A stretch of DNA of 64,000 nt from an uncultured Hyphomicrobiales bacterium (GTDB lineage: Bacteria; Bacteroidota; Ignavibacteria; Kapaibacteriales; UBA2268): assembly GCA_964473465.1 (NCBI GenBank), contig CAYYPE010000011.1:555-64554 (forward strand), in the 5' to 3' direction. The notes beneath the pieces were generated by a model. That model was given only the letters and a program-made list of their open reading frames with translations, made no database searches and was not told where the DNA came from. Below, in pieces: positions 24,951 through 50,962 of this stretch. Positions within the stretch are counted from its first letter, which is position 1, and each line of letters starts with the position of its first letter. A program made the position numbers and the translations under genes.

Positions 24951-26255
24951 ATGATAGAAAAATTTATCCTTAATTTTCATTTTTGTTCAAAGATAACAAT
25001 TTATTTATTTATATCCGGAACTGTTTTTTTTGCTACTAAACATAATCTCAAGTCCGAATGGGTAGATATAAGCCCAAAATCACTGAATCTGAAGGAGACA
25101 ATTTACGATATAAGCTTTGTAGATAATGATACTGCTTACGCTGTTGGTTGGAGTTCTTCCCGTTCCATTATTTTGAAGACAACAAATAGTGGCAAAGACT
25201 GGCAATTAAGGGAAATAAAGGGTTTTTATTTTTTTTCAGTTGAAGCTATTGCAGAAAAAATATTCATTGTAGGATATTCAGCCAGATGTATGTGTGGAGT
25301 TTTTTATTACTCTTTTGACAATGGTGAGAACTGGAATTTTTATGAATTTGATGGCGAAAAGATGCCTTTGACATTTGGAGCAATGAAGATAAGGAAAGAT
25401 CTTAGTAATAAATACTTCGTTACTGGTTTTAATGGCATAATTATCTTTTCGGAAGATGATGGGGAAAGTTGGGAATATGCCAAAACAGATAATAATACCG
25501 ATATTTTCCGGGATATTGTTTTTCTAAACGAAATAAATTATTTTTCAATAGCTGGCAAGAATTCAATCTTTTCAGATAAGATTTACATTTCATATAATTC
25601 CGGGGAAAAATGGGATTTATATTCAGATTTGTCAGATAAGCAAATCTCAATAAGCGGATTTCATTTTTTTAGTCCTGAGACTGGTTTCATTTTCGGAATT
25701 GGTCATGGTCAGGAGGCAATATATCATACTAATGATGGTGGAAAAAGCTGGAATCAGGTTTATCAGGGAGAAGTCGGTTATAATTTATTCAATGGATTAT
25801 TCATAAATGATAAGATAGGATTTACGGCAAAGCGTAAGGGGATGATATTTCAAACTACTGACGGGGGAAATTATTGGTTTGATGTTCAAACTCCATCAAA
25901 TAATAATATCAGGGGATTTAGAGCATATCAATATAATGGATTGCAAAATGTTTTTGCATTCGGAGAAAATGGGACAATTTTGAAATTTTCGATTGTTACA
26001 TCTGTTGATGGTGAGAATACTAAGTTTATCCTATCACCAAATCCAGCAGAGTCTTATATTGAATTTGATTTAGAAAATCATTTGCTCTATAAGAAAGGAG
26101 AAATATATAATTTACTTGGTGAAAAAGTTATCACCATAATGGATTTTAGAGAAAAAAATTTTGTAAATCTCGTGAATTTGAAAAATGGCTTATATATCCT
26201 TGTATTATATAATACTTACGGCGAAACAACCACAATAAAATTTCAAAAAAATTAA
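24951..26255 (+). CDS. T9SS-secreted beta-propeller protein (BNR/Ycf48-like repeats) with a type-A Por C-terminal sorting domain
   Basis: Repeated S/T-x-D-x-G-x-x-W motifs (TNSGKDWQ, DDGESWE, SGEKWD, DGGKSWN, DGGNYW). The C-terminus LSPNPAESYIEFDL…NGLYILVLYNTYGETTTIKF matches the T9SS CTD. Confidence 0.7.
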   Translation: MIEKFILNFHFCSKITIYLFISGTVFFATKHNLKSEWVDISPKSLNLKETIYDISFVDNDTAYAVGWSSSRSIILKTTNSGKDWQLREIKGFYFFSVEAIAEKIFIVGYSARCMCGVFYYSFDNGENWNFYEFDGEKMPLTFGAMKIRKDLSNKYFVTGFNGIIIFSEDDGESWEYAKTDNNTDIFRDIVFLNEINYFSIAGKNSIFSDKIYISYNSGEKWDLYSDLSDKQISISGFHFFSPETGFIFGIGHGQEAIYHTNDGGKSWNQVYQGEVGYNLFNGLFINDKIGFTAKRKGMIFQTTDGGNYWFDVQTPSNNNIRGFRAYQYNGLQNVFAFGENGTILKFSIVTSVDGENTKFILSPNPAESYIEFDLENHLLYKKGEIYNLLGEKVITIMDFREKNFVNLVNLKNGLYILVLYNTYGETTTIKFQKN

Positions 26256-26456: not shown

Positions 26457-28148
26457 ATGGAAATCAGAGATAAGAAAATCTTGGTACTTGGTGGATGGGG
26501 GCTGGTAGGTTCAGCGATTTGCCATAAACTTATGGAGCATAATCCATCGGCAATTATTATTTCGTCATTAAGAGAAAGCGAAGCAAAGGAAGCAATCGAA
26601 GCTCTTCGTAAAGAGTATAGCAGCAAAAATCCCGAAATGTTTATTCCGAAATGGGGTAATATTTTTACTCGCACAGAGTTTAAGGATAAAAACTGGTCAG
26701 ATGTTTTAGCCAACCGGGAATTGCGAAAGCTTGTTATCAATGATATATATGATGAACTTGACGATAGCATTCTGAAGGGTTCAGCCATATATGAATTAGT
26801 TAGTGAAACAAAACCGGATATTGTTATTGACTGTATTAATACTGCTACAGCAATTGCTTATCAGGATGTTTATAATACTTCGAGAGCAGTTCGAAACGAT
26901 CTGACAAAAAACAACCTCAACGAAGATTCAGTAGAACGTTTACTTGCAAGTATTTACATGCCGCAGTTGATAAGACATGTCCAGCTTGTTTACAGAAGCC
27001 TTGTTGATAATAACGTGAGAATGTATTTTAAGATTGGAACCAGCGGAACAGGCGGTATGGGATTAAATATACCCTATACTCACAGCGAGGAAAGTCCATC
27101 GAGAGTTCTTTTAGCAAAATCAAGCGTTGCAGGGGCTCAAACACTTTTACTTTTTTTAATGGCACGCACTCCAAACGCACCATTGGTAAAAGAAATCAAA
27201 CCTACAGCAGCTATAGCCTGGAAAAGAATTGCTTATGACAAAGTTTATCGCAAGGGCCAGCCAATCAGATTGGTTGATATGAATATCAATGACGCAAGGC
27301 CAATAAACGAACCCTTCCGCAAAGATGATTTGACTGGCGTTCAGGATTTAAACAAAGATTATGAGTCAGTTTTCATCGATACAGGTGAAAATGGCATTTT
27401 TTCCAAAGGGGAATTTCAGGCCATAAGTTCCTTAGGGCAGATGGAAGTTGTAACCCCCGAAGATATTGCAGTTTATACTATATTCGAAATTCTTGGAGGA
27501 AATACTGGCCACGATATTATTCAAGGACTTGATAGTTTCTCTCTCGGACCAACGTACAGAGGAGGTATGCTTCACAATCAAGCCTTGAGAAAACTAAATG
27601 AATTGGAGAAACAACATAATAATCATAGTATTGCCTTCGAAGCATTAGGACCACCAAGACTATCAAAGTTGCTTTATGAAGCTCACATTATAAATTTGGT
27701 TGTCGGGAAAATAAAAAATATTAGAAATTATTCTCCTGAAAAGCTCTCTGATGAAGCCTTTGAGGAAGTCAGCAAAAATAATGTTCTGAGAAGTGAAATG
27801 CTCTCCATTGGTTTGGGCATACTTTTGCCAGACGGGACAAAATACTTGAGAGGAAAAAATCTTATCGTTCCTAATATTGGTTCCGACGAATTGGTTGAAA
27901 TTACTGAAGAATTATTAAATTATTGGTGCAAGAAGGGTTGGATTGATTTAAGACCGACAAATATGCAACTATGGATAGATAGATTTAATAATATTATCTC
28001 TCAAGCTGAAAAAATTTCTGCTGATGAAACAAGTTCTCGCTACACATATAATTCAGATTACTGGGATAACTTTGAAGATATAGATGAAGGAAAGGTTGTG
28101 GGCTGGATTTTTGAATACGAAGATAAAGGCTGGAGATTTAAAAGATAG
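26457..28148 (+). CDS. Saccharopine-dehydrogenase-like NAD(P)-binding protein with a long C-terminal extension; function unknown
   Basis: N-terminal Rossmann motif KILVLGGWGLVGSAICHKL…SSLRESEAKEAIEAL, then KPDIVIDCINTATAIAYQDVY. This parallels carboxynorspermidine/saccharopine dehydrogenases (ILIIGAGGVGSVVAHK…KPQIVLNIALPYQD). The remaining ~350 aa has no recognised motif. Confidence 0.5.
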   Translation: MEIRDKKILVLGGWGLVGSAICHKLMEHNPSAIIISSLRESEAKEAIEALRKEYSSKNPEMFIPKWGNIFTRTEFKDKNWSDVLANRELRKLVINDIYDELDDSILKGSAIYELVSETKPDIVIDCINTATAIAYQDVYNTSRAVRNDLTKNNLNEDSVERLLASIYMPQLIRHVQLVYRSLVDNNVRMYFKIGTSGTGGMGLNIPYTHSEESPSRVLLAKSSVAGAQTLLLFLMARTPNAPLVKEIKPTAAIAWKRIAYDKVYRKGQPIRLVDMNINDARPINEPFRKDDLTGVQDLNKDYESVFIDTGENGIFSKGEFQAISSLGQMEVVTPEDIAVYTIFEILGGNTGHDIIQGLDSFSLGPTYRGGMLHNQALRKLNELEKQHNNHSIAFEALGPPRLSKLLYEAHIINLVVGKIKNIRNYSPEKLSDEAFEEVSKNNVLRSEMLSIGLGILLPDGTKYLRGKNLIVPNIGSDELVEITEELLNYWCKKGWIDLRPTNMQLWIDRFNNIISQAEKISADETSSRYTYNSDYWDNFEDIDEGKVVGWIFEYEDKGWRFKR

Positions 28149-28231
28149 GAAATTATATTTTTTTGAAATTAATATATTATACTAATTAACTTATGTTCAA
28201 TTTATTGCTTTTATTAACACAAGGAGTGCTT

Positions 28232-31200
28232 ATGAAAAAGAAATTACTACTTATTGCTGCTCTTTGCGGATTGTTGTTCTACACAAGCACAACATTTGCA
28301 AATGATAGCAAGCAAGTAGGCGACGAACTTCAAAGAAGAAGTCTTCTTTTTGAAGTTCCGGGATTTTATCAGGGTACAAGCTATCCAATGCCATTTCAGG
28401 AAATTGGAAACCCTGTAAATCGCCCACCTGTTTCCACAGGTTATTACTTTGTTGACAGCGATGACGAAGCTCCGGATTATTGGAGACCTATACCGGAAAT
28501 CGTTGATACAACAGTAGAACCCAACCTATGGCGAAGAATTTTGCCGGGTGCAAGACTTGTTGACCCTCAATACTGGATTGATAATCCACAGGAAGGTCTC
28601 AGGTTTTTCCGTAACCCAGCTTATCCAGCCTCAGATGGGAACTTCTTTACAGGTCCTACTGATTCAACCGATGACGCTATTGCCGGACCTATTCCAATAG
28701 GTTTCAGCTTTATTTTCAACGGTTTAAGGTATGACAGTTTTTATGTTTCAACAAATGGAATAATTGCTTTAACCAACAGAAGATACACTTACGATGCAAC
28801 AGGTCAGAAAGCTATTCTTCCCGGCGCAACCAGTTGTTATGACCCGATGAGCATGGACTGGTTCACAAGAGGAAGATCTGGGGATGGTTTAGCCGACAAC
28901 ACACCTGATAACTGGGGTTATCAGTATTCAGTTCTCGCTAATGCACCGACTTCTGCTACTGCCGGCATCAGAACAAGAGGCGGTTCGCTTGATCAGGCAA
29001 CATTCCAGACCAATAGATCAGCTTTGATTGCACCGTTCTTTGGTGATATGCATCTTTCACAGTTCAATCCTGATCTCAATCAGGCAGAAGATTTTGGGAA
29101 AGTCTATTTCAAACGCTCAAATTCTGCAGATAAACTGATAATTTACTTCATTAATATTGCTCCTCACAGAACACTTGCAACACCATTTGGAAATTATACT
29201 GGTCCAACTGATGCCCGTCCCGGTGTTCCTCAATATATTTCTGGTTCGGCACAGGTTGTATTGAACAGAATAGATAGTAGTGTTACTATTATTTATGAAA
29301 GATTCGAAGGTGTTGCTGTTGTTAGTGGAAGAGGCGTTCCTGCAAATACTGTTTTCAGATATAATACAACAGCAGGTGTATTCGGATATGCCCGCCACGT
29401 TAATTATGGTCAGACAACAGCTCCTGTTTATCCATGGGCAAGTGAATACTATCAGTCAACACACTATTTCATGAAATTTGCAAATGCACAGGCAACTTAT
29501 CCTCATAACTATTTAGCCGTTAAATTCAAACAATGGAAAAATACGGTTCGTGTTGTTGACATTCAATATCGTGTTAGAAAATCCGACCCAAATGCTGATT
29601 TGGATTTCTCAGAGCAAGTACCATCTTCACAGGTTAATAACTATGAATTGCTTGCTGGTGAAGAAAGAATCGGAGCCATTCAACCTGTTGCTTTGATTCA
29701 GAACCTTACCAACAACATTCAGGGACCGCAAGGCAAGAATTTTCAACCACAGCAGTTGAGATTCAGAGCACGTTTCAGAATTATCAACGAAGCTTCCGGA
29801 AGAATTATTTATAACCGTTTGGTTCCAATTGATAGTACCTGTTTGGCTCTTCCAGATTCATTATCTCAGGAATGTACCGGTGATCCGTTCGTAAGGGTAA
29901 GATACGTCAATGTTACCAAATCTGGTGCTAATTATTCCGCATCACCCCTTGCATTCCCTGGAACACAGAGATATAACGGTATTCCACCTTATGGCTATGT
30001 TCAGATTCTCTTCCCGCCATTTGAAGCAAACGAATTCGTTGCTAATCAGATTGGAAGAATGAGAGCTTATATTATAGCTGACCCAACTAACCCAATTACC
30101 AACGAGGGATTAGGTGATGAATGGCCATTTGATGATACGACATTTGTCAGACTTTTTGTTATGAAAAGATTGGATGATTTTAGCGATGATGTTACATCAT
30201 TCCATATCGTAAATAGAACTCCAATGCCTTCAACCTTGAAATGGGTAAATATAAATGCTGAGGTACAGGCTGGCGACGAAGTGTCAAAATATCCTTTACC
30301 CCCAAGAGGTGAATATTCAGCAACTAATAATAAAGATTTCACATTTTTGGATCCTAATTTTAGCACATTCAAACTTCAATCACCAGTAATAAGGATGAAC
30401 AGAGACCCTGAACCCCCTGCTAATTCCTACGGCGGTGATGAATTGCGTTCGTTCCCGATCAATTTGATTGGACGATACAATTCAGTCCTTTCTCTTTCTG
30501 TTCAACGTTCACTTTATCAACCTGATTGGCCCAGAGGCTGGAGCGATCAACAGTTAATAGCATGCGAACCGAGAACAGTGGTTAATGGTGATCCATTTAC
30601 AGTTTGGACAAATTATGCTGGTTCTGCTGCATCATTCCCCGATGAGTTTGCTGTTGAGTTGATGCAACCAAGCCCCAACGGAATTCAATATATTACTAAC
30701 GTTGAAGACAAACGCTGGAGAAACCATCCAAGACGTGGAGGAGCAAAAGCAGTAACTAATATGGCTGCTTATATTCTCTATGGTGCTGGTGGTGCTATGA
30801 GAGGTTTCCTCGAGGGCGACAAAGACTCTGCTCTTTCCCCGCCAACTGCAGGTTTCCTTAATGGTTTGAGACCTGATATTTATGACGATGGTATTGACTA
30901 TGAATACAAGAAAATCTTTATTCCAATACCTGATACTTTCATATCAGCTGAAAAAGACGGAGCCAAGAATTTCCGATTCAGATTGAAACTATATTCAAGA
31001 AATCAAGGTTTCGGAGGAAATAAGAAATGTATTTCCTGTATTCCTGACGATGATGACCCATTCTTTGTTGATAACGTAAGGATATTATTCCCGTCAGAAA
31101 TTACAGACCTTGAGATTTCGGTTGTAAAAGCTCAATGGCCTTACACAATAGCACCTGCTTCTCAGGCAGATAAGATTCCAATAAGAGTCAAGATGAGCAA

Positions 31201-32920
31201 TAACACAAGTGTTTATGCTCCTTCATTCCTTGTAAAAGTTATGATATATCGTAATGCCGGTGATCCCTATCCAATCTATTGCCGTGTTCAACCACTGCCC
31301 GGACTTGCTCCCGGAACAGTTCTTGAATATGCTATGCCGGATTGGAATGCAAGAAAAACAGGTCCCGGAAGATATTTCATGCTTGCTAATTTAATCGTTC
31401 CCGGTGGTGATATTGAACCATTGAACGATACTACATTCACTTTCTTCGATTTAAGATTTGGTGATGTTTTCGCTTATGATCCAGCACAAAACCCGAGAAA
31501 TGATGTTCCTGATAACTCATTCACCGGAGTTGCCGGTCGTGGTTTGAACCTTTATGGATTTGCTGCTGGTGGTAATGGTTCTATATATGGTCCTTCCGGC
31601 GGATATGACGGAAACACACTTGGTGCAGGTTATGTTGGTGGTAGCGGTTCCGGTCAGATAGCTGTTAAGTTTACATTGACCAGACCTGACACAATCAAAG
31701 GATACAAGGCATACTTTGGAGAATTAAACCAAGCCGGAGATGATATTTCATTTGAAGTGTATACAGATCAGGGACAACCCGGTTCACCTGTCCCCGGTAC
31801 TTTAATTTACAGACAACGTGGCTATGACGAAGATAGAAGAGACTTCCACTTTGGTGAATATGTCCAATTTAATTTACCAAGGCCTGTTGTTCTAAACGCT
31901 GGAAGTTACTGGATGGCTATCGGTCAAATGGGTGAAACTGGTCTTGAGCTTGGTGCGTCGAAATCAAGAGTTGGAATGAGAACAACAAGTATTTACATTC
32001 CACCGCCAGTTACTGCAGTTGGTCCTGTCGGAGGAAGCGGTTATCATCTTGTTATTGAAAAAGACTTTAGAAGAACTAATCCAAGTGGAAACTTGATTAA
32101 TAATAACTTCTTTGCCTTTGAAAATACAAGAAAGAGCGGACAATGGATTCAGTTTATGCCAACAATTGGTAATCCTGCTTATGCTCACTTACATCACTAT
32201 GGTATTTCACCAGCTGATAATTATACAGCTACACTATCCAGAGGAACATGGATTCCAATGATTAGACCATACTTCGGCAATAGAACTCATAGTACAAACC
32301 CAGAATACGAAATCTGCCCAGATATACCTGTTGAACTTACCAGCTTCGATGGTCAGGTGAGAAGTGGCGGTATTGACCTCTTCTGGGAAACTGCATCTGA
32401 GCATAATAACTATGGTTTCTATGTTGAAAGAAGAGTTGGAACAAAAGAAGATACAGATTGGAATTCAATTGGCTTTGTTAAAGGTGTTGGAAACTCTGCG
32501 GTTGTTAATAGATATAATTACCTCGACAAAGAAGTGGTTCCATTTACTACCTACCAATATCGTTTGAGACAGGTTGACAGAGACGGTATCGAAAATTGCG
32601 AGACCTTCTCCAAGATAATCACCTTGACATATGATAATGTCGAAGAGCTAACTTTAGCTCCTAACTCACCAAATCCATTTACAACAAGCACTCAAATTTC
32701 ATTCTATCTGCCAACAGATGACAATGTTAAACTTGAGATTCTTGATGTCTTTGGAAATGTTGTTAAGACATTATTCAATGGTAATCTACCTGCAAAACAG
32801 CATATCTACAACTGGGATGGTAGAAATGAAGCCGGTTCCTTTGTATCCAGTGGTACATATATCACAAGATTGATAGCCGGTGATCAGGTTAGAACAAGTA
32901 AGATGACATTGGTAAGATAA
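28232..32920 (+). CDS. Giant T9SS-secreted surface protein (1562 aa from the preferred start) with a type-A Por C-terminal sorting domain
   Basis: GGAG precedes the ATG at 28232 (MKKKLLLIAALCGLLFYTSTTFA is a signal peptide). The C-terminus …LAPNSPNPFTTSTQISFYLPTDDNVKLEILDVFGNVVKTLF…SGTYITRLIAG is a CTD. No catalytic motifs are evident in the body. Confidence 0.75.
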   Translation: MKKKLLLIAALCGLLFYTSTTFANDSKQVGDELQRRSLLFEVPGFYQGTSYPMPFQEIGNPVNRPPVSTGYYFVDSDDEAPDYWRPIPEIVDTTVEPNLWRRILPGARLVDPQYWIDNPQEGLRFFRNPAYPASDGNFFTGPTDSTDDAIAGPIPIGFSFIFNGLRYDSFYVSTNGIIALTNRRYTYDATGQKAILPGATSCYDPMSMDWFTRGRSGDGLADNTPDNWGYQYSVLANAPTSATAGIRTRGGSLDQATFQTNRSALIAPFFGDMHLSQFNPDLNQAEDFGKVYFKRSNSADKLIIYFINIAPHRTLATPFGNYTGPTDARPGVPQYISGSAQVVLNRIDSSVTIIYERFEGVAVVSGRGVPANTVFRYNTTAGVFGYARHVNYGQTTAPVYPWASEYYQSTHYFMKFANAQATYPHNYLAVKFKQWKNTVRVVDIQYRVRKSDPNADLDFSEQVPSSQVNNYELLAGEERIGAIQPVALIQNLTNNIQGPQGKNFQPQQLRFRARFRIINEASGRIIYNRLVPIDSTCLALPDSLSQECTGDPFVRVRYVNVTKSGANYSASPLAFPGTQRYNGIPPYGYVQILFPPFEANEFVANQIGRMRAYIIADPTNPITNEGLGDEWPFDDTTFVRLFVMKRLDDFSDDVTSFHIVNRTPMPSTLKWVNINAEVQAGDEVSKYPLPPRGEYSATNNKDFTFLDPNFSTFKLQSPVIRMNRDPEPPANSYGGDELRSFPINLIGRYNSVLSLSVQRSLYQPDWPRGWSDQQLIACEPRTVVNGDPFTVWTNYAGSAASFPDEFAVELMQPSPNGIQYITNVEDKRWRNHPRRGGAKAVTNMAAYILYGAGGAMRGFLEGDKDSALSPPTAGFLNGLRPDIYDDGIDYEYKKIFIPIPDTFISAEKDGAKNFRFRLKLYSRNQGFGGNKKCISCIPDDDDPFFVDNVRILFPSEITDLEISVVKAQWPYTIAPASQADKIPIRVKMSNNTSVYAPSFLVKVMIYRNAGDPYPIYCRVQPLPGLAPGTVLEYAMPDWNARKTGPGRYFMLANLIVPGGDIEPLNDTTFTFFDLRFGDVFAYDPAQNPRNDVPDNSFTGVAGRGLNLYGFAAGGNGSIYGPSGGYDGNTLGAGYVGGSGSGQIAVKFTLTRPDTIKGYKAYFGELNQAGDDISFEVYTDQGQPGSPVPGTLIYRQRGYDEDRRDFHFGEYVQFNLPRPVVLNAGSYWMAIGQMGETGLELGASKSRVGMRTTSIYIPPPVTAVGPVGGSGYHLVIEKDFRRTNPSGNLINNNFFAFENTRKSGQWIQFMPTIGNPAYAHLHHYGISPADNYTATLSRGTWIPMIRPYFGNRTHSTNPEYEICPDIPVELTSFDGQVRSGGIDLFWETASEHNNYGFYVERRVGTKEDTDWNSIGFVKGVGNSAVVNRYNYLDKEVVPFTTYQYRLRQVDRDGIENCETFSKIITLTYDNVEELTLAPNSPNPFTTSTQISFYLPTDDNVKLEILDVFGNVVKTLFNGNLPAKQHIYNWDGRNEAGSFVSSGTYITRLIAGDQVRTSKMTLVR

Positions 32921-33682: not shown

Positions 33683-33716
33683 AATAAAAAGGCTATCTCT
33701 TGAAATTGAGACAGCC
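33683..33716 (-). terminator. Rho-independent terminator of the 33742-35583 gene (minus strand)
   Basis: On the minus strand, ggctgtctc–aatttcaa–gagatagcc (9-bp stem, one mismatch) is followed by TTTTTATTTT. Confidence 0.55.
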
Positions 33717-33741
33717 CCTTGATTTCTTATGGAATTAGTAA

Positions 33742-35583
33742 TTATTCAAGAGAAATTAAAGGTAAAATATATCTTTCACCTTTATATTGAGCTACAAGAA
33801 AATATAAACCCTGACTTGAGTTAAAATCAATCTTTATTGAACCTTCACCTTTTGAAATAGCTTCAAAGGTATTATATTGCTGATTTCCAAATAAATCGTA
33901 AATTGAAAACTCAACCATTTCCGTGAGATTTTCTATTGCTTTGTAATTGATATTGAAAGAATTATTGAATGGATTTGGTGATGCCCAAATCTCAAAAAGA
34001 TTATTATCAAAACTCATAACATCATTATCAGCAGATAGGCTTGAGACCACTTCACCTTCAAGTTCAACAAAGAAATCTTTTTCGTTGAAAGCATCGCTTG
34101 ATATTTTTATCAAGCCTTTATATACTCTTTCTTGCGGACGATAGGAAAATCTTACAATGACTTTAACAGAATCTTTTGGCTTTATAGATATTGGAACCTT
34201 AACAACTTGATGAAAATTAAATGCATCGTCATCATTCTCTTCAATTTTTAAATAATTGATATTGAGTTCCATATCACCGTCATTACGGATATATAAGTCA
34301 ATATCTTTTTTCAAATCGCTTTGTTTGATCTTACCAAAATCCACCTTTTTGCCGTAATTAGTTGCGATTATTGGACCCTGATTGCCTTTTCCTGCCGTTC
34401 CTACAACATCAACGTATCTATAGTCAGGATTAGAATTGGTATAAATTGATAATTGAGCACTGTAAGATTGCTTATCAACCTTAGGAGTGAATCGAATCAC
34501 TACTTTATGAGACTGACCTTTTTTAAGTGTAACGGGTTTATTGGTTTTTACCTCCCCGTCAACGATCTGGAAAGCAGCATCTTCTTCCCACCATGATGTT
34601 TCCTTAATTATCAGGTTTTCCGTTCCAATGCTTTTAAGTTCTAATTCAATATCTCTTGTTGAATCAACAGGAACATGCCCGAAATCAATTCTCAATGGTT
34701 CAATTGAAAGAACAGGACCATCAGGAGGGATATTTCCCAGAAGCCATACCATTGCACGATAGAGGAGAGAACCTCTCGGAATATCACCTGCAAATCCTTC
34801 GAAACCCATACTCCATGCAGCAATTCTCGATTTACCCCATTCAGCTTTAATTCCTACTAAAGTATCGGTTGCATAAGCGTTGTTCTTTCTAATTATGTGA
34901 TCAACAGGCTGAAATTTATTTCTGTCCATTGTCTCGAATACAATAACACTTAAATAATTTGCGAGGGGCCACCATACTTCATCTCCAGCATTGAAACCAA
35001 TATTACACCACTTAACGATGTTTTTTCCTATCTGGCATTCCAGATCTCCACGAACCCAGAATGACCACCACATGATAGTATTTCCCTGAATTTGGTGGAA
35101 TGGAAGAACCCCGATGTATTTAATGCCGAGTGTGTCAGTGAGAAATTTTTGGACTTCTGTGCTTTTATTGCTGCTTGCTGGGTCGAAGGCATACCAGACG
35201 AATTTTCGCCCGGTTATCATAACGTTCTTTCCTGCTGCTATCATCTCCCTGATTTTTTCCAAAACGTTAAGCCCCCCGACACTTGCATTCAAAGGCAAAT
35301 CTCCAAGTGGAAATACTGCTAAATCATAGTCGGTTATTTTGTATTGACTGAAGGTTGAAGATGAAAAACTTGCCACCTTCGCATATTTAGCGTAAGTGTC
35401 TGTATGAGCCTCATCGGTGAAATATTTACCATAAGCTTCGTTTGCAAATTCTGTGTCAAAATTATTGAAAAGGATGTATTTATAGGGATTCACCTGTAAA
35501 TCGTATTTTTTATCTTCTCCTTTAGCAATAAATAAGGGGAAAATTAAAATTATAATAATGAAAAATTGTAACTGCTTTTTCAT
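33742..35583 (-). CDS. T9SS cargo protein, paralog A: shared ~250-aa N-terminal alpha/beta domain + 2 ASH/choice-of-anchor-D Ig-like domains + Por CTD
   Basis: Signal peptide. N-terminal domain motifs DYDLAVFPLGDLPL…GKNVMITGRKFVWYAFDP…FLTDTLGIKYI…RAMVWLLG. Ig-like segments IDFGHVPVDSTRDIELELKSIGTENLII and VDFGKIKQSDLKKDIDLYIRNDGDMEL. C-terminus …ASPNPFNNSFNINY…GLYFLVAQY. Confidence 0.75.
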   Translation of the reverse strand: MKKQLQFFIIIILIFPLFIAKGEDKKYDLQVNPYKYILFNNFDTEFANEAYGKYFTDEAHTDTYAKYAKVASFSSSTFSQYKITDYDLAVFPLGDLPLNASVGGLNVLEKIREMIAAGKNVMITGRKFVWYAFDPASSNKSTEVQKFLTDTLGIKYIGVLPFHQIQGNTIMWWSFWVRGDLECQIGKNIVKWCNIGFNAGDEVWWPLANYLSVIVFETMDRNKFQPVDHIIRKNNAYATDTLVGIKAEWGKSRIAAWSMGFEGFAGDIPRGSLLYRAMVWLLGNIPPDGPVLSIEPLRIDFGHVPVDSTRDIELELKSIGTENLIIKETSWWEEDAAFQIVDGEVKTNKPVTLKKGQSHKVVIRFTPKVDKQSYSAQLSIYTNSNPDYRYVDVVGTAGKGNQGPIIATNYGKKVDFGKIKQSDLKKDIDLYIRNDGDMELNINYLKIEENDDDAFNFHQVVKVPISIKPKDSVKVIVRFSYRPQERVYKGLIKISSDAFNEKDFFVELEGEVVSSLSADNDVMSFDNNLFEIWASPNPFNNSFNINYKAIENLTEMVEFSIYDLFGNQQYNTFEAISKGEGSIKIDFNSSQGLYFLVAQYKGERYILPLISLE

Positions 35584-35596
35584 TTTCTCCTCTATG

Positions 35597-37369
35597 TTAT
35601 TTTAATAGAATTACTGGTTTTGAATATAATTTATTGTTGTTTTCTATAGTAATATAATACAATCCGCTGCTTAATACTTTGTTTATCTGAAATTTTATTT
35701 CGTCCTGAATTATTGGCTCAACAGACGTATTAAAAACTAATCTTCCATCTGAAGAAACCAAACTTATTTTTATAGGTGAATAAGCAGGCTTAATTAATTT
35801 GATAATTATCTCAGATTTGTCAGTCATAGGGTTAGAAATAACATTGAATGAAAAATCGGTATAATTATCATCATTAACCTGACTTGGGGAAGTGCCCTCA
35901 CCAGTCAGTTGAATTTCAAATACTGGGGAATTCAGTGCATCAGAATAAATTCTTAGTGTGCCGTTATAGATTTTTTCCTCTTTGGGCTGGAAATATACTT
36001 CTTTTAATTTTTTTCCTCCGGGAGGGATTTTTGCACTTGTAACTCCGTCTCCAAAGAAAATTTGATCGGCATCATCGAAGATTAACATACTATCTACGCT
36101 TAAATTAACATTACCTGAATTAATAATATCAAAGGACCTGGAAACTTTTTCTCCTATTGGGGTTTTTCCAAAATCTAATTTATTACCAGTCAAACTAACG
36201 GAAATAAGCCCACCAGACCTGATATCTCCGTTTCCGGTAAGATTCACTGCTTTTTCGGACTCTGTTTGAGAATTCGATTTAATGATTAAAAAATCAGCGT
36301 AATAGCCCTTTTCTTTTGGTTTGAATCGGAGTGTTACGGTGTGAACCTCTCCCGATTTGAGAGTTAAGGGATTTCCCCCATCAATAATTGAGAAGGCATT
36401 TTTGCCGCTGAAATTTTCGACTTCAATTGAACTTACTATCAAATCCTGAGTGCCAATATTTCGAAAGCTAACAGTTGATTCGGAGCTATCACCAACATAA
36501 ACATAGCCAAAATCAACATTTTCGTCAAGAGATTGAATCTGTGCACCGGGTTGAAGCTCTCCTTCGGTTAACCATTTCATACCTCTTTCAATGATGGAGT
36601 AACGATAGATATTTCCTGCAATATTTTCAAATCCATAACTCCAAAAAACAATCTTTGATTTTCCAACCTGAGTTCTGATTCCGAGTAATGTGTCATTCAA
36701 AGGTGCCGGGTGTGTCCTTGTGAAAATATCTACCGGAAAATATTTGTTTGGGTCTTTGGTTTTAAAAACATCAACATAAAGAACTGTGTCTAATGGTGTA
36801 TGCTTGGTTGAGCCTTGTATATAAGTCTGATTGCAGAACCTGACATCAGCTTTGCCAATTGGGTCTTTTGGAGACCCTCTAACAACATATCCCTGAAAAT
36901 AAATTGTATTACCGCTAATGTAGTGAACGGGCATCCTTTTAATAAATTCGACACCAAGAATATTTGTAAGAAAATTATTGACTTCAGGATGTTTCACTTG
37001 TGATTTTGGATCAAATTCTCCCCATAGACCATTTTTGGCAATAATCATCACACTTCTTCCTGAATCAATCATCATTTTGATTTTGTCTATCACATAGTGT
37101 TTGCCTGATGGTGTTCTTACACTTAAAGGATATTCACCCATTGCAAAGATTGCAACTTTGTAGTCTGTTATTTTAATTACATCAAGAATTTCATCAGCAA
37201 AAGGAAAAGATTCAACTTCAATTCCGCAATATTCCATCAAATTATTTTCATATACTCTGGGACCGTATTTAACATCCAGATTATTGAAATAAATATATTC
37301 GCAGGAAAACGAGTAAAATAATGGTATAAATAAAGAGAGTAAAGAAAAGAGAAGATTTTTAAGTTTCAT
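35597..37369 (-). CDS. T9SS cargo protein, paralog B (same architecture as paralog A)
   Basis: DYKVAIFAMGEYPL…GRSVMIIAKNGLWGEFDP…FLTNILGVEFI…RGMKWLTEG aligns motif for motif with paralog A. Ig-like segments VDFGYVYVGDSSESTVSFRNIGTQDLIV and LDFGKTPIGEKVSRSFDIINSGNVNL. CTD …VISNPMTDKSEIII…GLYYITIENNN. 13 nt from paralog A. Confidence 0.75.
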   Translation of the reverse strand: MKLKNLLFSLLSLFIPLFYSFSCEYIYFNNLDVKYGPRVYENNLMEYCGIEVESFPFADEILDVIKITDYKVAIFAMGEYPLSVRTPSGKHYVIDKIKMMIDSGRSVMIIAKNGLWGEFDPKSQVKHPEVNNFLTNILGVEFIKRMPVHYISGNTIYFQGYVVRGSPKDPIGKADVRFCNQTYIQGSTKHTPLDTVLYVDVFKTKDPNKYFPVDIFTRTHPAPLNDTLLGIRTQVGKSKIVFWSYGFENIAGNIYRYSIIERGMKWLTEGELQPGAQIQSLDENVDFGYVYVGDSSESTVSFRNIGTQDLIVSSIEVENFSGKNAFSIIDGGNPLTLKSGEVHTVTLRFKPKEKGYYADFLIIKSNSQTESEKAVNLTGNGDIRSGGLISVSLTGNKLDFGKTPIGEKVSRSFDIINSGNVNLSVDSMLIFDDADQIFFGDGVTSAKIPPGGKKLKEVYFQPKEEKIYNGTLRIYSDALNSPVFEIQLTGEGTSPSQVNDDNYTDFSFNVISNPMTDKSEIIIKLIKPAYSPIKISLVSSDGRLVFNTSVEPIIQDEIKFQINKVLSSGLYYITIENNNKLYSKPVILLK

Positions 37370-37519
37370 ATTTGTCTCCTTTAAATAATTGAGACTAATT
37401 TAAAAAAGCATTTTTGGATTCCAACTTTGATATTTAAAAAGGGGAAGAATCCATCTTTTTGTTGAAGATGGATTCGACGCCCTGAATTAATAATAATAAA
37501 TTAAAAGAAATCACAAGAT

Positions 37520-40276
37520 TTACTTATTGATAATAAGGGGTAAATTAACCCTTGTTCCCTCAATATTTGCTAAAATGAAATAAATACCTGAGCTTAAACT
37601 TTCGGCATTAATATCCAATTGATGATTTCCGGGGTTAGTTGTTTGTTCATAAAGTGAACTTATAACTTTTCCACTCATATCAATCAATTGAATGTTAATA
37701 TTCTTAGGTGTATATCCGCCAAGTGTGAAGTCAATTTTACCGATTAAAGATATTGGATTTGGTGTTGCTTTGATCTTAAACAATCCATTCTCAGAAACGG
37801 CCTCGCTAACGGAAGAAGCGACGTCGGATTCACCTACCAATTGAATTTCGAAACTTGGGAAGTTTTTAGCATTTGAAGTTATACTAATTGTTCCCTCGTA
37901 TTTTTTATTTTCCTCTGTTGGGCTAAATTTGACTGTAATAGTTCTGCTATCATCTTTTGGAACAGTCCCGGGTTCGCTTCCATCAACAAATGAAAATACT
38001 TCGTTATCATTTTTTGTGAATTTGATTTCACTAATAACTAAATCTTCACTGCCATTATTGAAAATAATTACATCTTTATTCATAGATTTTCCGGGCTTAA
38101 CCTTAGGCGAAGTCCATTCAAGTTTTTGTTTATTTGCAGAAATTTGAGCACCAGCACCGGGAGCACCTTCGGCAATAAGATTGACAACTTCATCTTTGGC
38201 ATTTTCAGCATTTGAAGTGATAAAGATTGAACCATCATATTTCTTGGCTGCCTTGGGGGTGAATTTTACTGTAACTGCAATCAGTTGTCCTGGTTTTATT
38301 GTTACGGGAGTTGTGCCACCCTCAGTAATTTCAAAAACACCATCTGGGTCGTAATCGGGGTCATTATAAAGTTTTGAAATTATTAAATCTTTGTCGCCAT
38401 CATTTTTTATTGAGAAGGACATTTCTTTGGAAGAGCCAACCTGAACCTTGTCAAAATTCAATGTTGAATTAGATAAAGTAATTTTTGGACCACCAGAAGA
38501 AGTAGTCGTGGTTAACCATTTCATTGCCTGCGAAAGCAATTTAGCCCTTGAACCCTGATCATCGAAAGCTCCTAAATCAAAGCCGCAATAAATAAGTTTT
38601 GCAAATCCATTATCAAACTTAAATCCAGCAATATCAGATGGCTTATTATTATATACGAAACAAGCTGTGGATTTGCTGTTTGATGGTATAGAGAAAATAT
38701 CAGAGAAGAAATTATAACCATTCTGCGGATTTGCATTGCTTGGGGCTATTATATTCATCCCGACGGGGTCTCCATCAATCCCGTTAACATTGTAGCGAAG
38801 CAAACTTATCTGGTTGTTATTCACAGAGTATCTTTGATCGGCTCTTACCCAGTTAACTCCTAATATGTCAGTAAAAAATGTTTTATATTCCCATGGTGCA
38901 TTAAATTGAGCGGTATAAGTATAAAATCCAGTGCAATCCGAGAAAATTAACACGTTCTTTCTCATGCTGATCATTGAATTAATCGTGTTCAGCATTGATT
39001 GTGATAATGGATTGATTATAATATTGCCACCAAAATATGAAGATGTGCTGAAAATTGCTACATCAAAGTTAGTCGGTGGATATGCCTGAATAGTTTCGGT
39101 AGCGTAGGGAATTACAGCTAAATCCTTATTGTATGTTGCCAATTGAGCAAAGGCATTAATATAGTGTGTAATCCATGGGTTATAACCCGAATATAAAGCA
39201 TATTTGGTGTCCTCAGTAAGGATATAAAAATCTGCCGTTGTGGGAGCACTTGCCGAATTTGTATTTGGTGTTGCTTTTATTATTATTGCGGCAAAACCAG
39301 CGTTATCTTTGGTCTTCACTGTAACAGTCAATTCTGTGGAAGCATTAGCTGCCAACGTTGTTGATGTTGGGCTGACAGTTGCTGTCCATCCTGTTGGGAG
39401 GAAGCTTGTCGGGTCAACAACAATATCAAACTTAAGGCTTGATTTATTAGGATTTGTTAAAGTAATTTTCTTTGTCAAAGTATTATTTCTGGCAGATGTG
39501 AGGAACCTATCGGCGATTGTTTCGAATTTGCCGGTAACCATACTCTGAGCAGCCTGATATACTTCTTTTGTTGCATCATCCTGAACAAAAGCGACAACAT
39601 AAATTTTCGCTTTATCCCAACCGGACTGAATTGTGTAAGTATGTGTAAATTTCTTAGTTTCATCTGCTGCAAGATTAATAGTTGTTCCATTATGATCGGG
39701 CAACATTTTTCTAACAACCCATGGAAATTCTTTTTCACCGTTAGAGCCCGGTGGTGTTGAAAAAACAACATTTTGTTCAACCACGCAAATTCTAAGCTTC
39801 TTGTTTGATAATGCTTGTGAAGTGTGAATTTCAACATCAACAGATGAGTTTGAACCAGTCCTTGTCTCTGTTACATTGAGTGTAATCGGAGACATTTGAG
39901 TTCTTAATGAAGCAAGTGAGGAGCCAATATTTGCTATACTTGCGGGATGACCCCGAACTGTTCCAAGAAAAACATAATGAGGAACACCATTAACTTGATA
40001 ATAACTCGTCCTTCCATTATGCATTGTAGGGTTCTCGGCATTAAAAGGGTCGGAACCGGGAAAATTAGGATGGAATACTATTGGTATTAATACATCCAGA
40101 TTATTACTCACGTAACTTTTAAAAGTTGGATTTGAAGCAGCACAAGGTCCGCAAGATGCATTAGTAAATTCCTCCAGAAGTCCTTTTTTGGGGGAATCTG
40201 CAAAGCTGAGATGAATACAAAACAGGAAACTGATTGAAATCATCAATAAGCTTGTAAAGCGTTTTAAATTAATCAT
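37520..40276 (-). CDS. T9SS cargo protein, paralog C: N-terminal thioredoxin-like (CGPC) domain + Ig-like domain + shared N-domain + 3 ASH/choice-of-anchor-D domains + Por CTD
   Basis: 918 aa. Near the N-terminus, EEFTNASCGPCAASNPTFKSY…NGVPHYVFLG has the thioredoxin-fold pattern, including the cis-Pro position. Shared-domain motifs DVAIFSTSSYFGG…RKNVLIFSDCTGFYTYTAQFNAPWEYKTFFTDILGVNWV…QAMKWLTTT. Ig-like segments LNFDKVQVGSSKEMSFSIKNDGDKDLII and similar. CTD ATPNPISLIGKIDF…GIYFILANIEG. Confidence 0.75.
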   Translation of the reverse strand: MINLKRFTSLLMISISFLFCIHLSFADSPKKGLLEEFTNASCGPCAASNPTFKSYVSNNLDVLIPIVFHPNFPGSDPFNAENPTMHNGRTSYYQVNGVPHYVFLGTVRGHPASIANIGSSLASLRTQMSPITLNVTETRTGSNSSVDVEIHTSQALSNKKLRICVVEQNVVFSTPPGSNGEKEFPWVVRKMLPDHNGTTINLAADETKKFTHTYTIQSGWDKAKIYVVAFVQDDATKEVYQAAQSMVTGKFETIADRFLTSARNNTLTKKITLTNPNKSSLKFDIVVDPTSFLPTGWTATVSPTSTTLAANASTELTVTVKTKDNAGFAAIIIKATPNTNSASAPTTADFYILTEDTKYALYSGYNPWITHYINAFAQLATYNKDLAVIPYATETIQAYPPTNFDVAIFSTSSYFGGNIIINPLSQSMLNTINSMISMRKNVLIFSDCTGFYTYTAQFNAPWEYKTFFTDILGVNWVRADQRYSVNNNQISLLRYNVNGIDGDPVGMNIIAPSNANPQNGYNFFSDIFSIPSNSKSTACFVYNNKPSDIAGFKFDNGFAKLIYCGFDLGAFDDQGSRAKLLSQAMKWLTTTTSSGGPKITLSNSTLNFDKVQVGSSKEMSFSIKNDGDKDLIISKLYNDPDYDPDGVFEITEGGTTPVTIKPGQLIAVTVKFTPKAAKKYDGSIFITSNAENAKDEVVNLIAEGAPGAGAQISANKQKLEWTSPKVKPGKSMNKDVIIFNNGSEDLVISEIKFTKNDNEVFSFVDGSEPGTVPKDDSRTITVKFSPTEENKKYEGTISITSNAKNFPSFEIQLVGESDVASSVSEAVSENGLFKIKATPNPISLIGKIDFTLGGYTPKNINIQLIDMSGKVISSLYEQTTNPGNHQLDINAESLSSGIYFILANIEGTRVNLPLIINK

Positions 40277-48004: not shown

Positions 48005-50962
48005 TTATTTTCCGATAAAAACAGGATGGATTTCTTTTGTTCCGTCTGATAATTCAAGGCTAATATAATAAAGACCATTAGAAACCAACATTCCGGCGTG
48101 ATTTTCACCTTTCCATCTATCGCAATAAGCTATATTTGGCATTCTTAAAACATTTTTTACCGGTTCGGCTACCAATCTGTTATTTTGATCATAAATTTTG
48201 ATTGATAAATTTGATTCTTTTTTCAGTATATAAACAATTTCTAATTCTTCTGCTGGCGGTTCAAAAGGATTTGGAGCCACCATTATTATAAATTTTGGTT
48301 TTGAATTCAGTAGAGTTGTGTCCTTTTGCAAACACGAATTCTCGCAACAAAATCGAAATATCAAGTCATCGGGATAATCACTTCGAGCTTGCCAGATATA
48401 TTTTTCGTCATCAATTGATTTTTTTGCTACCTGATTGTAAGTTTGTCCATAATCATTCGAAACAAGAATCGAAACGCTATCACAAGGAAACTCTATATCA
48501 TTTTTGTCCCAGAAAAATTTATAATCACAACATAATTCATTGTTTGGTTCTAATTGAACTGGAAATTGTGCTGGTAAAAGTGAAGAACTTATAGTGTCAG
48601 AAATAATTGTGATATTACTGCTTTTTGCAACAATTCTTATAAATAAGTTATTATTTTTAGTATTGCTGGAGCAATCAAAAATATCAAGACAAGGAATGTT
48701 GATTTGATTCTCAAACAAGCCATCGGAGTCCATCAGCAATCTTTGAAAACTTATCCAGTTTAAGCTGTCAATAGAATATTCAATATTTGCAGAATCTATA
48801 CATTGATGTGTTCCGTTCAACATAATTGACTGACCTGAAACTATAGGCTTCGTTCCGAAATCATTCAATGTAACAAAAGGGGTAGATATTTTAATTAACG
48901 AGGAGGAATCATTTATTACGTTGGCATGATCAGCTCTATAAACGATTAATTTTCCTTCTTTGCCAATTAGTAATTCATTAACTTTATAATCATATGAACC
49001 GAAATCACCGGAGTTATCAATATTTTCAGCGATTTCAATCATTTTATTGATAGGTTTACCATCACTATATTCCTGAAATCCAATATTTACTTTCCCATAA
49101 TTTCTGATTATATTTTTCCATCTGATTTGAATTATATCACCGTTGCAATAAACTGCAGGGCGGTCATCTGTATATTTTGGAGCAGTTAGCTGGATTGTAT
49201 TTTTATTAATGGAGCCAATAACATATAATTTACTAAATGTAGTTACAATCAGGTCGTTAAAACCATCCCCTTCAATATCAGCGACAGCTACGTCGGCAAT
49301 AGTCTCATTAGGAAAATCGGTTGAAAAAACAGTTGAAAAGGGTTTTCCAGAACGAAAATCATTACTAAAATAATCATTCATACGAAGAACCTTCAGATTA
49401 GATCCATCTACTATGACTATCTCATCTTTTTGATCAGAAGCACCATCCAGATCATTAACAACTGCAACCCATCCATTGATTTTTTGCGTGGCAATTGTGT
49501 CGAATGGCAATAGATAAGAATCTGGAGGGGTGGTTTTTGGTATTCTGTTCTGACTGTTATATCTTAAAACCAATAACTTGTTACCAGCCACAGACAGTTT
49601 TGGGGAACTATATGTAACTATTAATTCATTGCCTTTATTATTTGGATAATAAGGAAGCCAGCTATTATTGGCATTTCCGTCCACGTTTCCTTTAGCAATT
49701 GACCAGTAATGATTTTTAAACCCGATTAATGGAGGATTTAAATTTTGTGGTTGATAAGAATTAGTTAAGATGTTTCCCTGACTGTCGCAAAGGTAAATTT
49801 TTGGGACTCCAATGGAACTATCAAGTCCAGTGTATTCCTCTAACAATAAAATAAAACTGCTATCAGTATTTTTTGATTGATCTTTAATATCCAGATAGTA
49901 AGTTCTTATTTGGGGTCTTTTAGATAAAGTGTCCAGAAGTGAACTTAGATCTTTGGGACCAATATCCCTTCCGATTTTTGAACTGGTAATATCTGCAGAC
50001 ATTAAATAAGGTTTATTGGCTGATGTCGAGTCATTTAATAAAATTTTATTACCAACTTTTTCATTTATATCAGGAGATGGAAAGTTTGGGAATAGCAAAG
50101 CTGTTTTGATATTTCCAATATTAGTCATAGAAGGCTGGTCGAAGTTTACTTCCGGACCAACTAAAAATCTTGTCGTCGTATCATCCCCGATATCAGGCAT
50201 TGGATAATTATATAAATCAAGACTTGTATTGAATTGTAATAAACCTCTCAGAAATTTATTTTCCGTAAGTGGTGTAAAATTCAAATCAGGTTTTGACATA
50301 TTAATTATTCCGTAAATAATCAGATTTGAACCGGATTTCTTTCCAAAAATCGGTTTTAGACCTGCAAATGTATTTGGTTTATACTTCCTCAAATCCACTG
50401 CTAACCTCCTGATAATAGCTATGGAATCGGCAAATTGATCGAAGCCTGCTATATAGCAGTAAACAAGAGAATCTCTGATATTTTCGAATTCCATTGTTTC
50501 AATTCCAAGAACAAGTGGAGCAGTAACATTATAGCTTAAACCAAAGGATAGAGTATCGAAAAGCACAGAAACATCTTTGATATAAGGTATAGGAAATGAA
50601 TTCTCGGTTCGTTCCCTTCCCATTGCATCAACAACAAGAATTTTTCCTGAGACTACCGCAGTAATCTCATTTGGAGCGTATAAATAGTCAGAATGAATTT
50701 TAGGATTATTAATAATATTACCAATCAATGGTTTCAAATTGCCATGAATTTTTGCATTTGCCCACTTAATTTTGAATTGACTGACATCCTGATTTTTCGA
50801 AGGGTAAATTTGTTGCCTTGTAGCTTGTGGATTTTGTTCTGGATATAACCTGTTAGCAGGGCTTGAATGAAAAACCTGCGAATAACTGTTTGATGTAGTA
50901 ATGAACAGAAAAATTCCTAAAATAAAAAGAAAAAATGGATTTATATTTTTAGTCATATCCAA
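48005..50962 (-). CDS. T9SS-secreted surface protein (FG-GAP-like repeat, Cys-rich C-terminal module, type-A Por CTD)
   Basis: 985 aa with a signal peptide. VAVADIEGDGFNDLIVTT is an FG-GAP-like motif. The C-terminal CTD is VAPNPFEPPAEELEIVYIL…NGLYYISLELSDG. Confidence 0.7.
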   Translation of the reverse strand: MDMTKNINPFFLFILGIFLFITTSNSYSQVFHSSPANRLYPEQNPQATRQQIYPSKNQDVSQFKIKWANAKIHGNLKPLIGNIINNPKIHSDYLYAPNEITAVVSGKILVVDAMGRERTENSFPIPYIKDVSVLFDTLSFGLSYNVTAPLVLGIETMEFENIRDSLVYCYIAGFDQFADSIAIIRRLAVDLRKYKPNTFAGLKPIFGKKSGSNLIIYGIINMSKPDLNFTPLTENKFLRGLLQFNTSLDLYNYPMPDIGDDTTTRFLVGPEVNFDQPSMTNIGNIKTALLFPNFPSPDINEKVGNKILLNDSTSANKPYLMSADITSSKIGRDIGPKDLSSLLDTLSKRPQIRTYYLDIKDQSKNTDSSFILLLEEYTGLDSSIGVPKIYLCDSQGNILTNSYQPQNLNPPLIGFKNHYWSIAKGNVDGNANNSWLPYYPNNKGNELIVTYSSPKLSVAGNKLLVLRYNSQNRIPKTTPPDSYLLPFDTIATQKINGWVAVVNDLDGASDQKDEIVIVDGSNLKVLRMNDYFSNDFRSGKPFSTVFSTDFPNETIADVAVADIEGDGFNDLIVTTFSKLYVIGSINKNTIQLTAPKYTDDRPAVYCNGDIIQIRWKNIIRNYGKVNIGFQEYSDGKPINKMIEIAENIDNSGDFGSYDYKVNELLIGKEGKLIVYRADHANVINDSSSLIKISTPFVTLNDFGTKPIVSGQSIMLNGTHQCIDSANIEYSIDSLNWISFQRLLMDSDGLFENQINIPCLDIFDCSSNTKNNNLFIRIVAKSSNITIISDTISSSLLPAQFPVQLEPNNELCCDYKFFWDKNDIEFPCDSVSILVSNDYGQTYNQVAKKSIDDEKYIWQARSDYPDDLIFRFCCENSCLQKDTTLLNSKPKFIIMVAPNPFEPPAEELEIVYILKKESNLSIKIYDQNNRLVAEPVKNVLRMPNIAYCDRWKGENHAGMLVSNGLYYISLELSDGTKEIHPVFIGK

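Follow-up and report, generated by a model that had tools for sequence, protein, structure and literature searches.

The best-studied protein that resembles the one described here is HBP35 of Porphyromonas gingivalis, which combines one thioredoxin motif with an immunoglobulin (Ig)-like fold and a C-terminal type IX secretion system (T9SS) domain within 344 amino acids (PMC2907840). In its recombinant form HBP35 outpaces E. coli thioredoxin in reducing insulin, an activity that the C48S/C51S variant lacks, and hbp35 complements an E. coli dsbA mutant; the binding of hemin was mapped to M135-P344, is independent of the cysteines and survives C48S/C51S (PMC2907840). HBP35 reaches the cell surface via the T9SS and is glycosylated there with anionic lipopolysaccharide (A-LPS) (PMC3120885). 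Another T9SS protein with thioredoxin and Ig parts was called HBP35-like in a 2026 preprint. We analysed a stretch of 64,000 nucleotides (the window) from contig CAYYPE010000011.1 of an uncultured bacterium (assembly GCA_964473465.1), in which a minus-strand open reading frame (ORF) at 37520..40276 encodes a protein of 918 amino acids, a gene delimited by the ORF list, by Pfam and NCBIfam scans and by full-length orthologues. The predicted order of its parts is a signal peptide, an Omp28/HBP35-type module, an Ig-like domain, a domain like class I glutamine amidotransferases (GATase1-like), two Ig domains of the choice-of-anchor-D type and a T9SS C-terminal domain. By analogy with HBP35 we consider it likely that the module is a thiol-disulfide oxidoreductase, placed N-terminally in a T9SS cargo of several domains and exported to the surface.

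The motif on which this proposal centres lies close behind the signal peptide. A Sec-type signal peptide (residues 1-26, 40199..40276; like all features of the gene, on the minus strand) was recognised by reading of the sequence and from a modelled N-terminal helix (4-25). It reads MINLKRFTSLLMISISFLFCIHLSFA, followed by DSP after the predicted cleavage site, and cleavage probably takes place after SFA, again as read from the sequence. The signal peptide is followed by DSPKKGLLEEFTNASCGPCAASNP, and the mature N-terminal region reads ...KKGLLEEFTNASCGPCAASNP...YYQVNGVPHYVFLG. C42-G43-P44-C45 (40142..40153), which sits where helix 1 begins and is a putative redox-active dithiol, was assigned from its codons (TGC for C42 at 40151-40153 and TGT for C45 at 40142-40144) and its conservation. 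No other CGPC occurs in any of the six reading frames of the whole window, and given the composition of the window's long ORFs the chance expectation for a protein this long is 1.6e-4. V98-P99 (39980..39985), contained in YYQVNGVPHYVFLG, takes the position of the cis-proline loop of the thioredoxin fold, just before strand 3, according to the model and the conservation.

A clear thioredoxin fold was obtained in the AlphaFold2 model of residues 1-255, which was built with 29 homologues and has a predicted local distance difference test score (pLDDT) of 90.2, a predicted template modelling score (pTM) of 0.84 and two lobes. Lobe 1 (thioredoxin-fold lobe, residues 28-125, 39902..40195) has the topology beta-alpha-beta-alpha-beta-beta-alpha, with strand 32-37, CGPC, helix 43-57, strand 63-68, helices 77-92, VP, strands 100-103 and 107-109 and helix 114-124; CGPC stands where helix 43-57 starts, and VP directly precedes strand 100-103. 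In the model, both the four-stranded sheet with three helices and a CxxC that heads helix 1 are thus present, which places the lobe in the thioredoxin-fold superfamily. Lobe 2 is a beta-sandwich at residues 131-244, within the Ig-like portion of the module that the Pfam Omp28 model covers (residues 126-248, 39533..39901). As modelled, residues 28-248 form a single module of the Omp28/HBP35 type, with the thioredoxin lobe packed against the beta-sandwich lobe; its best structural matches are oxidoreductases and the closest solved structure is that of P. gingivalis HBP35. An earlier note on this DNA had proposed a CGPC-bearing thioredoxin-like domain at 39900-40200, and C42, C45 and V98-P99 indeed all fall within these limits. 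A predicted structure without the fold, which that note had named as counter-evidence, was not what the model gave. The note had also described a VP some 60 residues behind the CxxC; the VP is there, at a distance of 53 residues (C45 to V98).

The module can be assigned to a named family. Judged by its profile score of 61.5 bits (cut-off 34.9), the domain belongs to Pfam Omp28 (PF11551); residues 91-248 align with positions 6-168 of the 171-position model. The top NCBIfam model for the module was NF045500 ('Omp28-related selenoprotein', E 3.4e-20, residues 28-248), and NF033782 ('Omp28 family outer membrane lipoprotein', E 1.1e-15) was matched over model positions 34-262 of 264, so that the two alignments together span residues 26-248. 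Neither narrower assignment could be kept. NF045500 reached only 72.7 bits vs a cut-off of 200 and no in-frame TGA is present; because both active-site codons encode Cys, the protein is not a selenoprotein. The lipoprotein subfamily NF033782 was excluded by its score (57.5 bits vs a cut-off of 150) and by the lack of a canonical lipobox, since in the N-terminus ...SFLFCIHLSFA, cut before DSP, the FLF that precedes C20 misfits (judged by eye). When the module and two family profiles were compared with the sequences of the PDB, only non-significant thioredoxin matches and DUF1223 were found (PDB 2axo, E 2.6e-4 with the family profile), and neither the Omp28 domain nor HBP35 (PDB 5y1a; family profile, E<=10) was recovered. 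The kinship with HBP35 therefore rests on structure comparison. A local alignment with thioredoxin h, which includes LLEEFTNASCGPCAASNPTF and is not significant (E 1.8), puts E36 where thioredoxin has its buried Asp. No paper in the literature searched treats Omp28 proteins as thioredoxin-like or takes up the selenoproteins among them.

The active site is conserved throughout the family. CxxC was found at the equivalent place in 152 of the 155 proteins from two word-indexed searches, and the other three matched solely through Ig or C-terminal domains. As a word-indexed search favours exact shared words such as SCGPC, the counts were repeated on a HMMER scan that uses no word index and that covered 1.84 billion cluster representatives (clustered at 50% identity) and gave 4,902 matches at E<=1e-3, 2,499 of them with E<=1e-10. 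Residues were counted in the best 150 proteins, which contain 159 domains: C42 is retained in 149 and C45 in 154 of them, P99 without exception, and the motif is CGPC in 91, CPPC in 29 and CAPC in 16. C42, P44, C45 and P99 are invariant among the 29 aligned homologues, as are C42 and C45 in alignments A1 and A4, and the full-length orthologues all keep CxPC, in the form CGPC with one exception (CSPC). Orthologues lacking the CxxC pair, the other kind of counter-evidence foreseen in the earlier note, were thus not found. C164, the other cysteine of the domain, is not conserved.

A second near-invariant set of residues was observed beyond CxPC and P99, some of it within the beta-sandwich lobe. 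E35, D76, R89 and N179-G180-E181 are each retained in 152-155 of the 159 domains (N179 in 155, G180 in 154 and E181 in 153), and this set may compose a joint site with the CxxC. The best-conserved loop of the beta-sandwich lobe, P175-P-G-S-N-G-E181 (39734..39754), which was delimited by the conservation of N179, G180 and E181, is a candidate contact to the thioredoxin lobe.

Another important point is the predicted export of the protein. The C-terminal sorting domain (residues 838-918, ending in ...LPLIINK, 37523..37765) scored above threshold with both PF18962 (32.6 bits, cut-off 27) and TIGR04183 (27.4 bits, cut-off 23). Together with the N-terminal Sec signal, likewise a prediction, this makes the protein a T9SS type A cargo, in line with the secretion route that the earlier note had proposed. 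The same note had called the export of a thioredoxin-Ig protein by the T9SS unusual, a view that we have to reverse: the matches to family profiles indicate that a T9SS-exported thioredoxin-like module is common, and that it belongs to a very large named family, Omp28, for which HBP35 is a precedent. Among 67 sampled representatives of the clusters matched in the HMMER scan, 66 matched Omp28, 46 (~69%) carried Por_Secre_tail and 19 an Ig domain of the choice-of-anchor-D type. What is distinctive about the studied protein is only the long architecture with its GATase1-like platform, and this is itself kept in an uncultured clade and has already been annotated generically.

The relatives of the module occur in several further settings. 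One subgroup (P0028 and P0030-P0034) consists of lipoproteins with a lipobox (...SAC/GC), in which PEGA precedes the Omp28 module and a T9SS domain is missing; with the T9SS-tailed relatives this means that the same putative redox module is attached to the cell in two ways. Some relatives (among P0157, P0159, P0162, P0175, P0198, P0200, P0204 and P0290) contain two or three separate Omp28-module stretches, and in very large relatives the module is internal, for instance at residues 1569-1793 of the 3613 amino acids of P0198.

From the conserved active site, the fold and the analogy with HBP35 we infer that the module is thioredoxin-like, probably redox-active, and acts as a thiol-disulfide oxidoreductase. 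The use of selenocysteine is nearly confined to redox-active sites, and the curated NCBI selenoprotein model of relatives therefore suggests redox use in at least some of them. The protein would be exported by the Sec pathway, fold in the periplasm and then cross the outer membrane via the T9SS by means of its type A C-terminal domain, probably ending at the cell surface. There, Cys42, exposed at the N-terminus of helix 1, would attack a substrate disulfide, Cys45 would resolve the mixed disulfide and the P99 loop would hold the backbone of the substrate, while the Ig-like and GATase1-like domains would probably serve as a stalk or as a platform for oligomerisation or binding.

Several observations weigh against such a redox role. 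A Pfam scan of residues 26-117 alone gave 12.1 and 12.6 bits for Thioredoxin and Thioredoxin_2, vs cut-offs of 23.5 and 27, and S41 sits where the WCGPC of thioredoxin has its tryptophan. A few relatives carry SxxC or miss both cysteines, and the scaffold can therefore persist without the dithiol. HBP35, the only relative that has been assayed, is 17-18% identical to the module and linked to it by structure alone. No CcdA/DsbD-like or other redox partner adjoins the studied gene or two of its orthologues and, to our knowledge, no pathway supplies the outward side of the outer membrane with reducing equivalents, which leaves the sustained turnover of a reductase unexplained. A further reading would be that proteins with the ~920-residue, Kapaibacteria-specific architecture are extracellular disulfide reductases that use sulfide, thiols or Fe(II) from the environment of anoxic habitats, with the platform, also present in two downstream paralogues, holding the substrate. 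We hold this extension to be doubtful and give it a low probability; if true, it would amount to a surface redox enzyme without a link to the electron supply of the cell.

Other explanations were weighed against the oxidoreductase. The main rival is that the module would serve mostly as a scaffold for binding or adhesion (e.g. of hemin), in which the CxxC is a static disulfide that provides stability outside the cell and does not turn over. The hemin binding of HBP35 at M135-P344, which survives C48S/C51S, fits such a role, and yet HBP35 is also catalytic in vitro (PMC2907840). The absence of a known reductant supply at the surface, the loop xGxNGE that the beta-sandwich lobe keeps near-invariant on its own, and the loss of one or both cysteines in some relatives all speak for a scaffold; however, CxPC and P99 are conserved far above the rest of the domain at an identity of only ~30-45%, the family includes a curated selenoprotein branch, and no His, Met, Tyr or Cys that might ligate heme is invariant in the beta-sandwich lobe. 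We therefore regard a mere scaffold as rather unlikely. The CxxC of thioredoxin-fold proteins can also bind metals or bridge 2Fe-2S clusters, and E35, D76 and E181 provide conserved acidic residues alongside the motif. That the module binds a metal (e.g. Cu, Zn or Hg) or an Fe-S cluster at a dimer interface, as a device for metal binding or sensing at the surface, is nevertheless quite improbable, as just two cysteines are conserved (C164 is not), the CGPC is of the thioredoxin type and comes with a putative cis-proline loop, the top structural matches are oxidoreductases, and no metal-handling genes were found near the studied gene.

The place of action was considered as well. T9SS cargo proteins fold in the periplasm before their export, and at that stage the module could serve its own polypeptide or other T9SS cargo as a DsbA-like oxidase or isomerase, which would make the surface location irrelevant. 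The CGPC dipeptide is of the reducing type, whereas CPHC is typical of DsbA, and it would be wasteful to fuse a general periplasmic catalyst with a multi-domain protein that is exported to the surface. Moreover, the presence of an export domain in 46 of the 67 sampled relatives suggests that the destination matters. For these reasons we judge periplasmic action to be improbable; in its favour are the complementation of an E. coli dsbA mutant by hbp35 (PMC2907840) and the presence of only four further cysteines in the remaining protein. The last alternative, that CGPC and VP arose by chance in a sequence unrelated to thioredoxin, has a practically negligible probability: the Thioredoxin scores in Pfam are not significant, but the expectation given above, the confident model, the strong fold matches and the near-invariance across thousands of relatives all contradict it.

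Behind the putative oxidoreductase module the protein continues with domains of other kinds. An extra Ig-like beta-sandwich (residues 256-345, 39242..39511) was found in an AlphaFold2 model (pLDDT 93.3, all-beta across model residues 1-108) and had matches in Pfam below threshold only (NPCBM_assoc and BACON_2). It is followed by the GATase1-like alpha/beta domain (residues 346-592, 38501..39241), which is also ThuA-like and GH42 middle-domain-like and which was identified by structure comparison only, residues 330-595 being without any Pfam match. The catalytic nucleophile Cys is not conserved (C448, after the strand NVLIFS, is replaced in both paralogues), none of Cys, His and Glu is invariant in alignment A2, and the domain is probably non-catalytic. 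The two Ig domains of the choice-of-anchor-D or HYDIN type (residues 597-702, 38171..38488, and residues 720-816, 37829..38119) were matched, as two stretches, by the same models (PF22073, 83.4 bits; PF22544, 74.1 bits; NF012200, 85.4 bits). The second of them also gives a weak match, 31.8 bits vs a cut-off of 100, to NF041425 ('OS_HP2 family (seleno)protein'). It is the second family named after selenoproteins that this protein matches, and probably reflects mere general similarity between Ig domains. The multi-Ig architecture described in the earlier note thus holds for these two repeats, but it had overlooked that the thioredoxin part is one half of a two-lobed Omp28 module and that a GATase1-like domain of ~250 residues lies between this module and the repeats.

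Two paralogues are encoded downstream on the same strand (35597..37369, 590 amino acids, and 33742..35583, 613 amino acids). They match the studied gene from about residue 360 on, with 26-27% identity, and share with it the GATase1-like domain, both choice-of-anchor-D Ig domains and the C-terminal domain for the T9SS, but not the Omp28 module. The two lie in tandem, 13 nucleotides apart, and a terminator-like site follows them at 33720..33687. About 45 nucleotides past the stop codon of the studied gene we found, from the sequence and the folding energy, an 11-bp hairpin followed by UUCCCCUUUUU (37436..37475, minus strand), which had been missed by a simple terminator scan. Its folding energy of -19.8 kcal/mol (z-score -5.8) was reached by none of 200 shuffles. 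With its U-rich tail it is likely the transcript end, and the studied gene probably ends its own transcript.

Full-length orthologues (~912-947 amino acids, 29-92% identity, ~100% coverage) were found in metagenome-assembled genomes (MAGs) that are labelled Kapabacteria or Kapaibacteriota at NCBI, a class that sits within the Bacteroidota in the NCBI taxonomy. The closest relatives with a name are MAGs of environmental Kapaibacteria, and the action on host or matrix substrates that the earlier note had suggested finds no support. The gene neighbourhood is not conserved: a paralogue of 610 amino acids lies directly downstream at one orthologous locus (L003) and is absent at another. No TonB-receptor or heme genes are adjacent to the studied gene or at two orthologous loci. 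A link with peptide uptake, for which the neighbouring genes for an OPT transporter, an M20 peptidase and AnmK had been considered, was dropped because all three are missing from the two orthologous loci examined.

We observed no component of the T9SS machinery among the scanned ORFs of the window. At least five of its ORFs bear a C-terminal sorting domain, and the genome appears to be rich in T9SS cargo. Other large secreted proteins encoded in the window are one of 1335 amino acids with IgGFc_binding, HYDIN-type Ig and Por_Secre_tail domains (15117..19124, minus strand), a BNR/YCF48-like protein of 434 amino acids with Por_Secre_tail (24951..26255, plus strand) and one of 1575 amino acids in which a C-terminal FlgD_ig-like domain is the sole domain recognised (28193..32920, plus strand). 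Two further long ORFs (48005..50962, minus strand, 985 amino acids, and 26457..28148, plus strand, 563 amino acids) had no Pfam match at E<=1e-5.

Taken alone, the finding is of little weight, as it adds one member with a longer architecture to a large family of thioredoxin-like surface proteins. Only HBP35 among the structural relatives has ever been assayed, though the family counts ~4,900 cluster representatives. How the CGPC dithiol is recycled beyond the outer membrane is a question that the whole group shares, and the environmental member described here shows how far it is spread.

In comparison with the known systems, HBP35 (5y1a) has thioredoxin and Ig-like lobes that can be superposed on those of the module. 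It has Tyr50 as the third residue of the motif, where the studied protein has the proline of CGPC, and it consists of the module and the C-terminal domain only, whereas the studied protein inserts ~590 residues (the Ig-like, the GATase1-like and the two choice-of-anchor-D Ig domains) between them. HBP35 comes from an oral pathogen and the studied protein from an environmental, Kapaibacteria-like host, with no sign of a role in heme acquisition. Omp28 of P. gingivalis (PDB 2r2c; PF11551, NF033782) is anchored by a lipid, whereas the studied protein is more than three times longer, lacks a lipobox and is predicted to be anchored via the T9SS. DUF1223 (PF06764; Agrobacterium Atu2684, PDB 2axo), which we take to be mainly proteobacterial, is a structural homologue from another sequence family and has no T9SS domain. 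DsbA, proteins of the ResA/TlpA type and the pneumococcal surface lipoprotein Etrx2 (PDB 4hqz) are extracytoplasmic thioredoxin-fold oxidoreductases as well, which stay in the periplasm or at the cytoplasmic membrane and can be recycled there by DsbB or CcdA/DsbD; the studied protein, in contrast, is predicted to cross the outer membrane, and in place of the helical insertion of DsbA it carries the beta-sandwich lobe.

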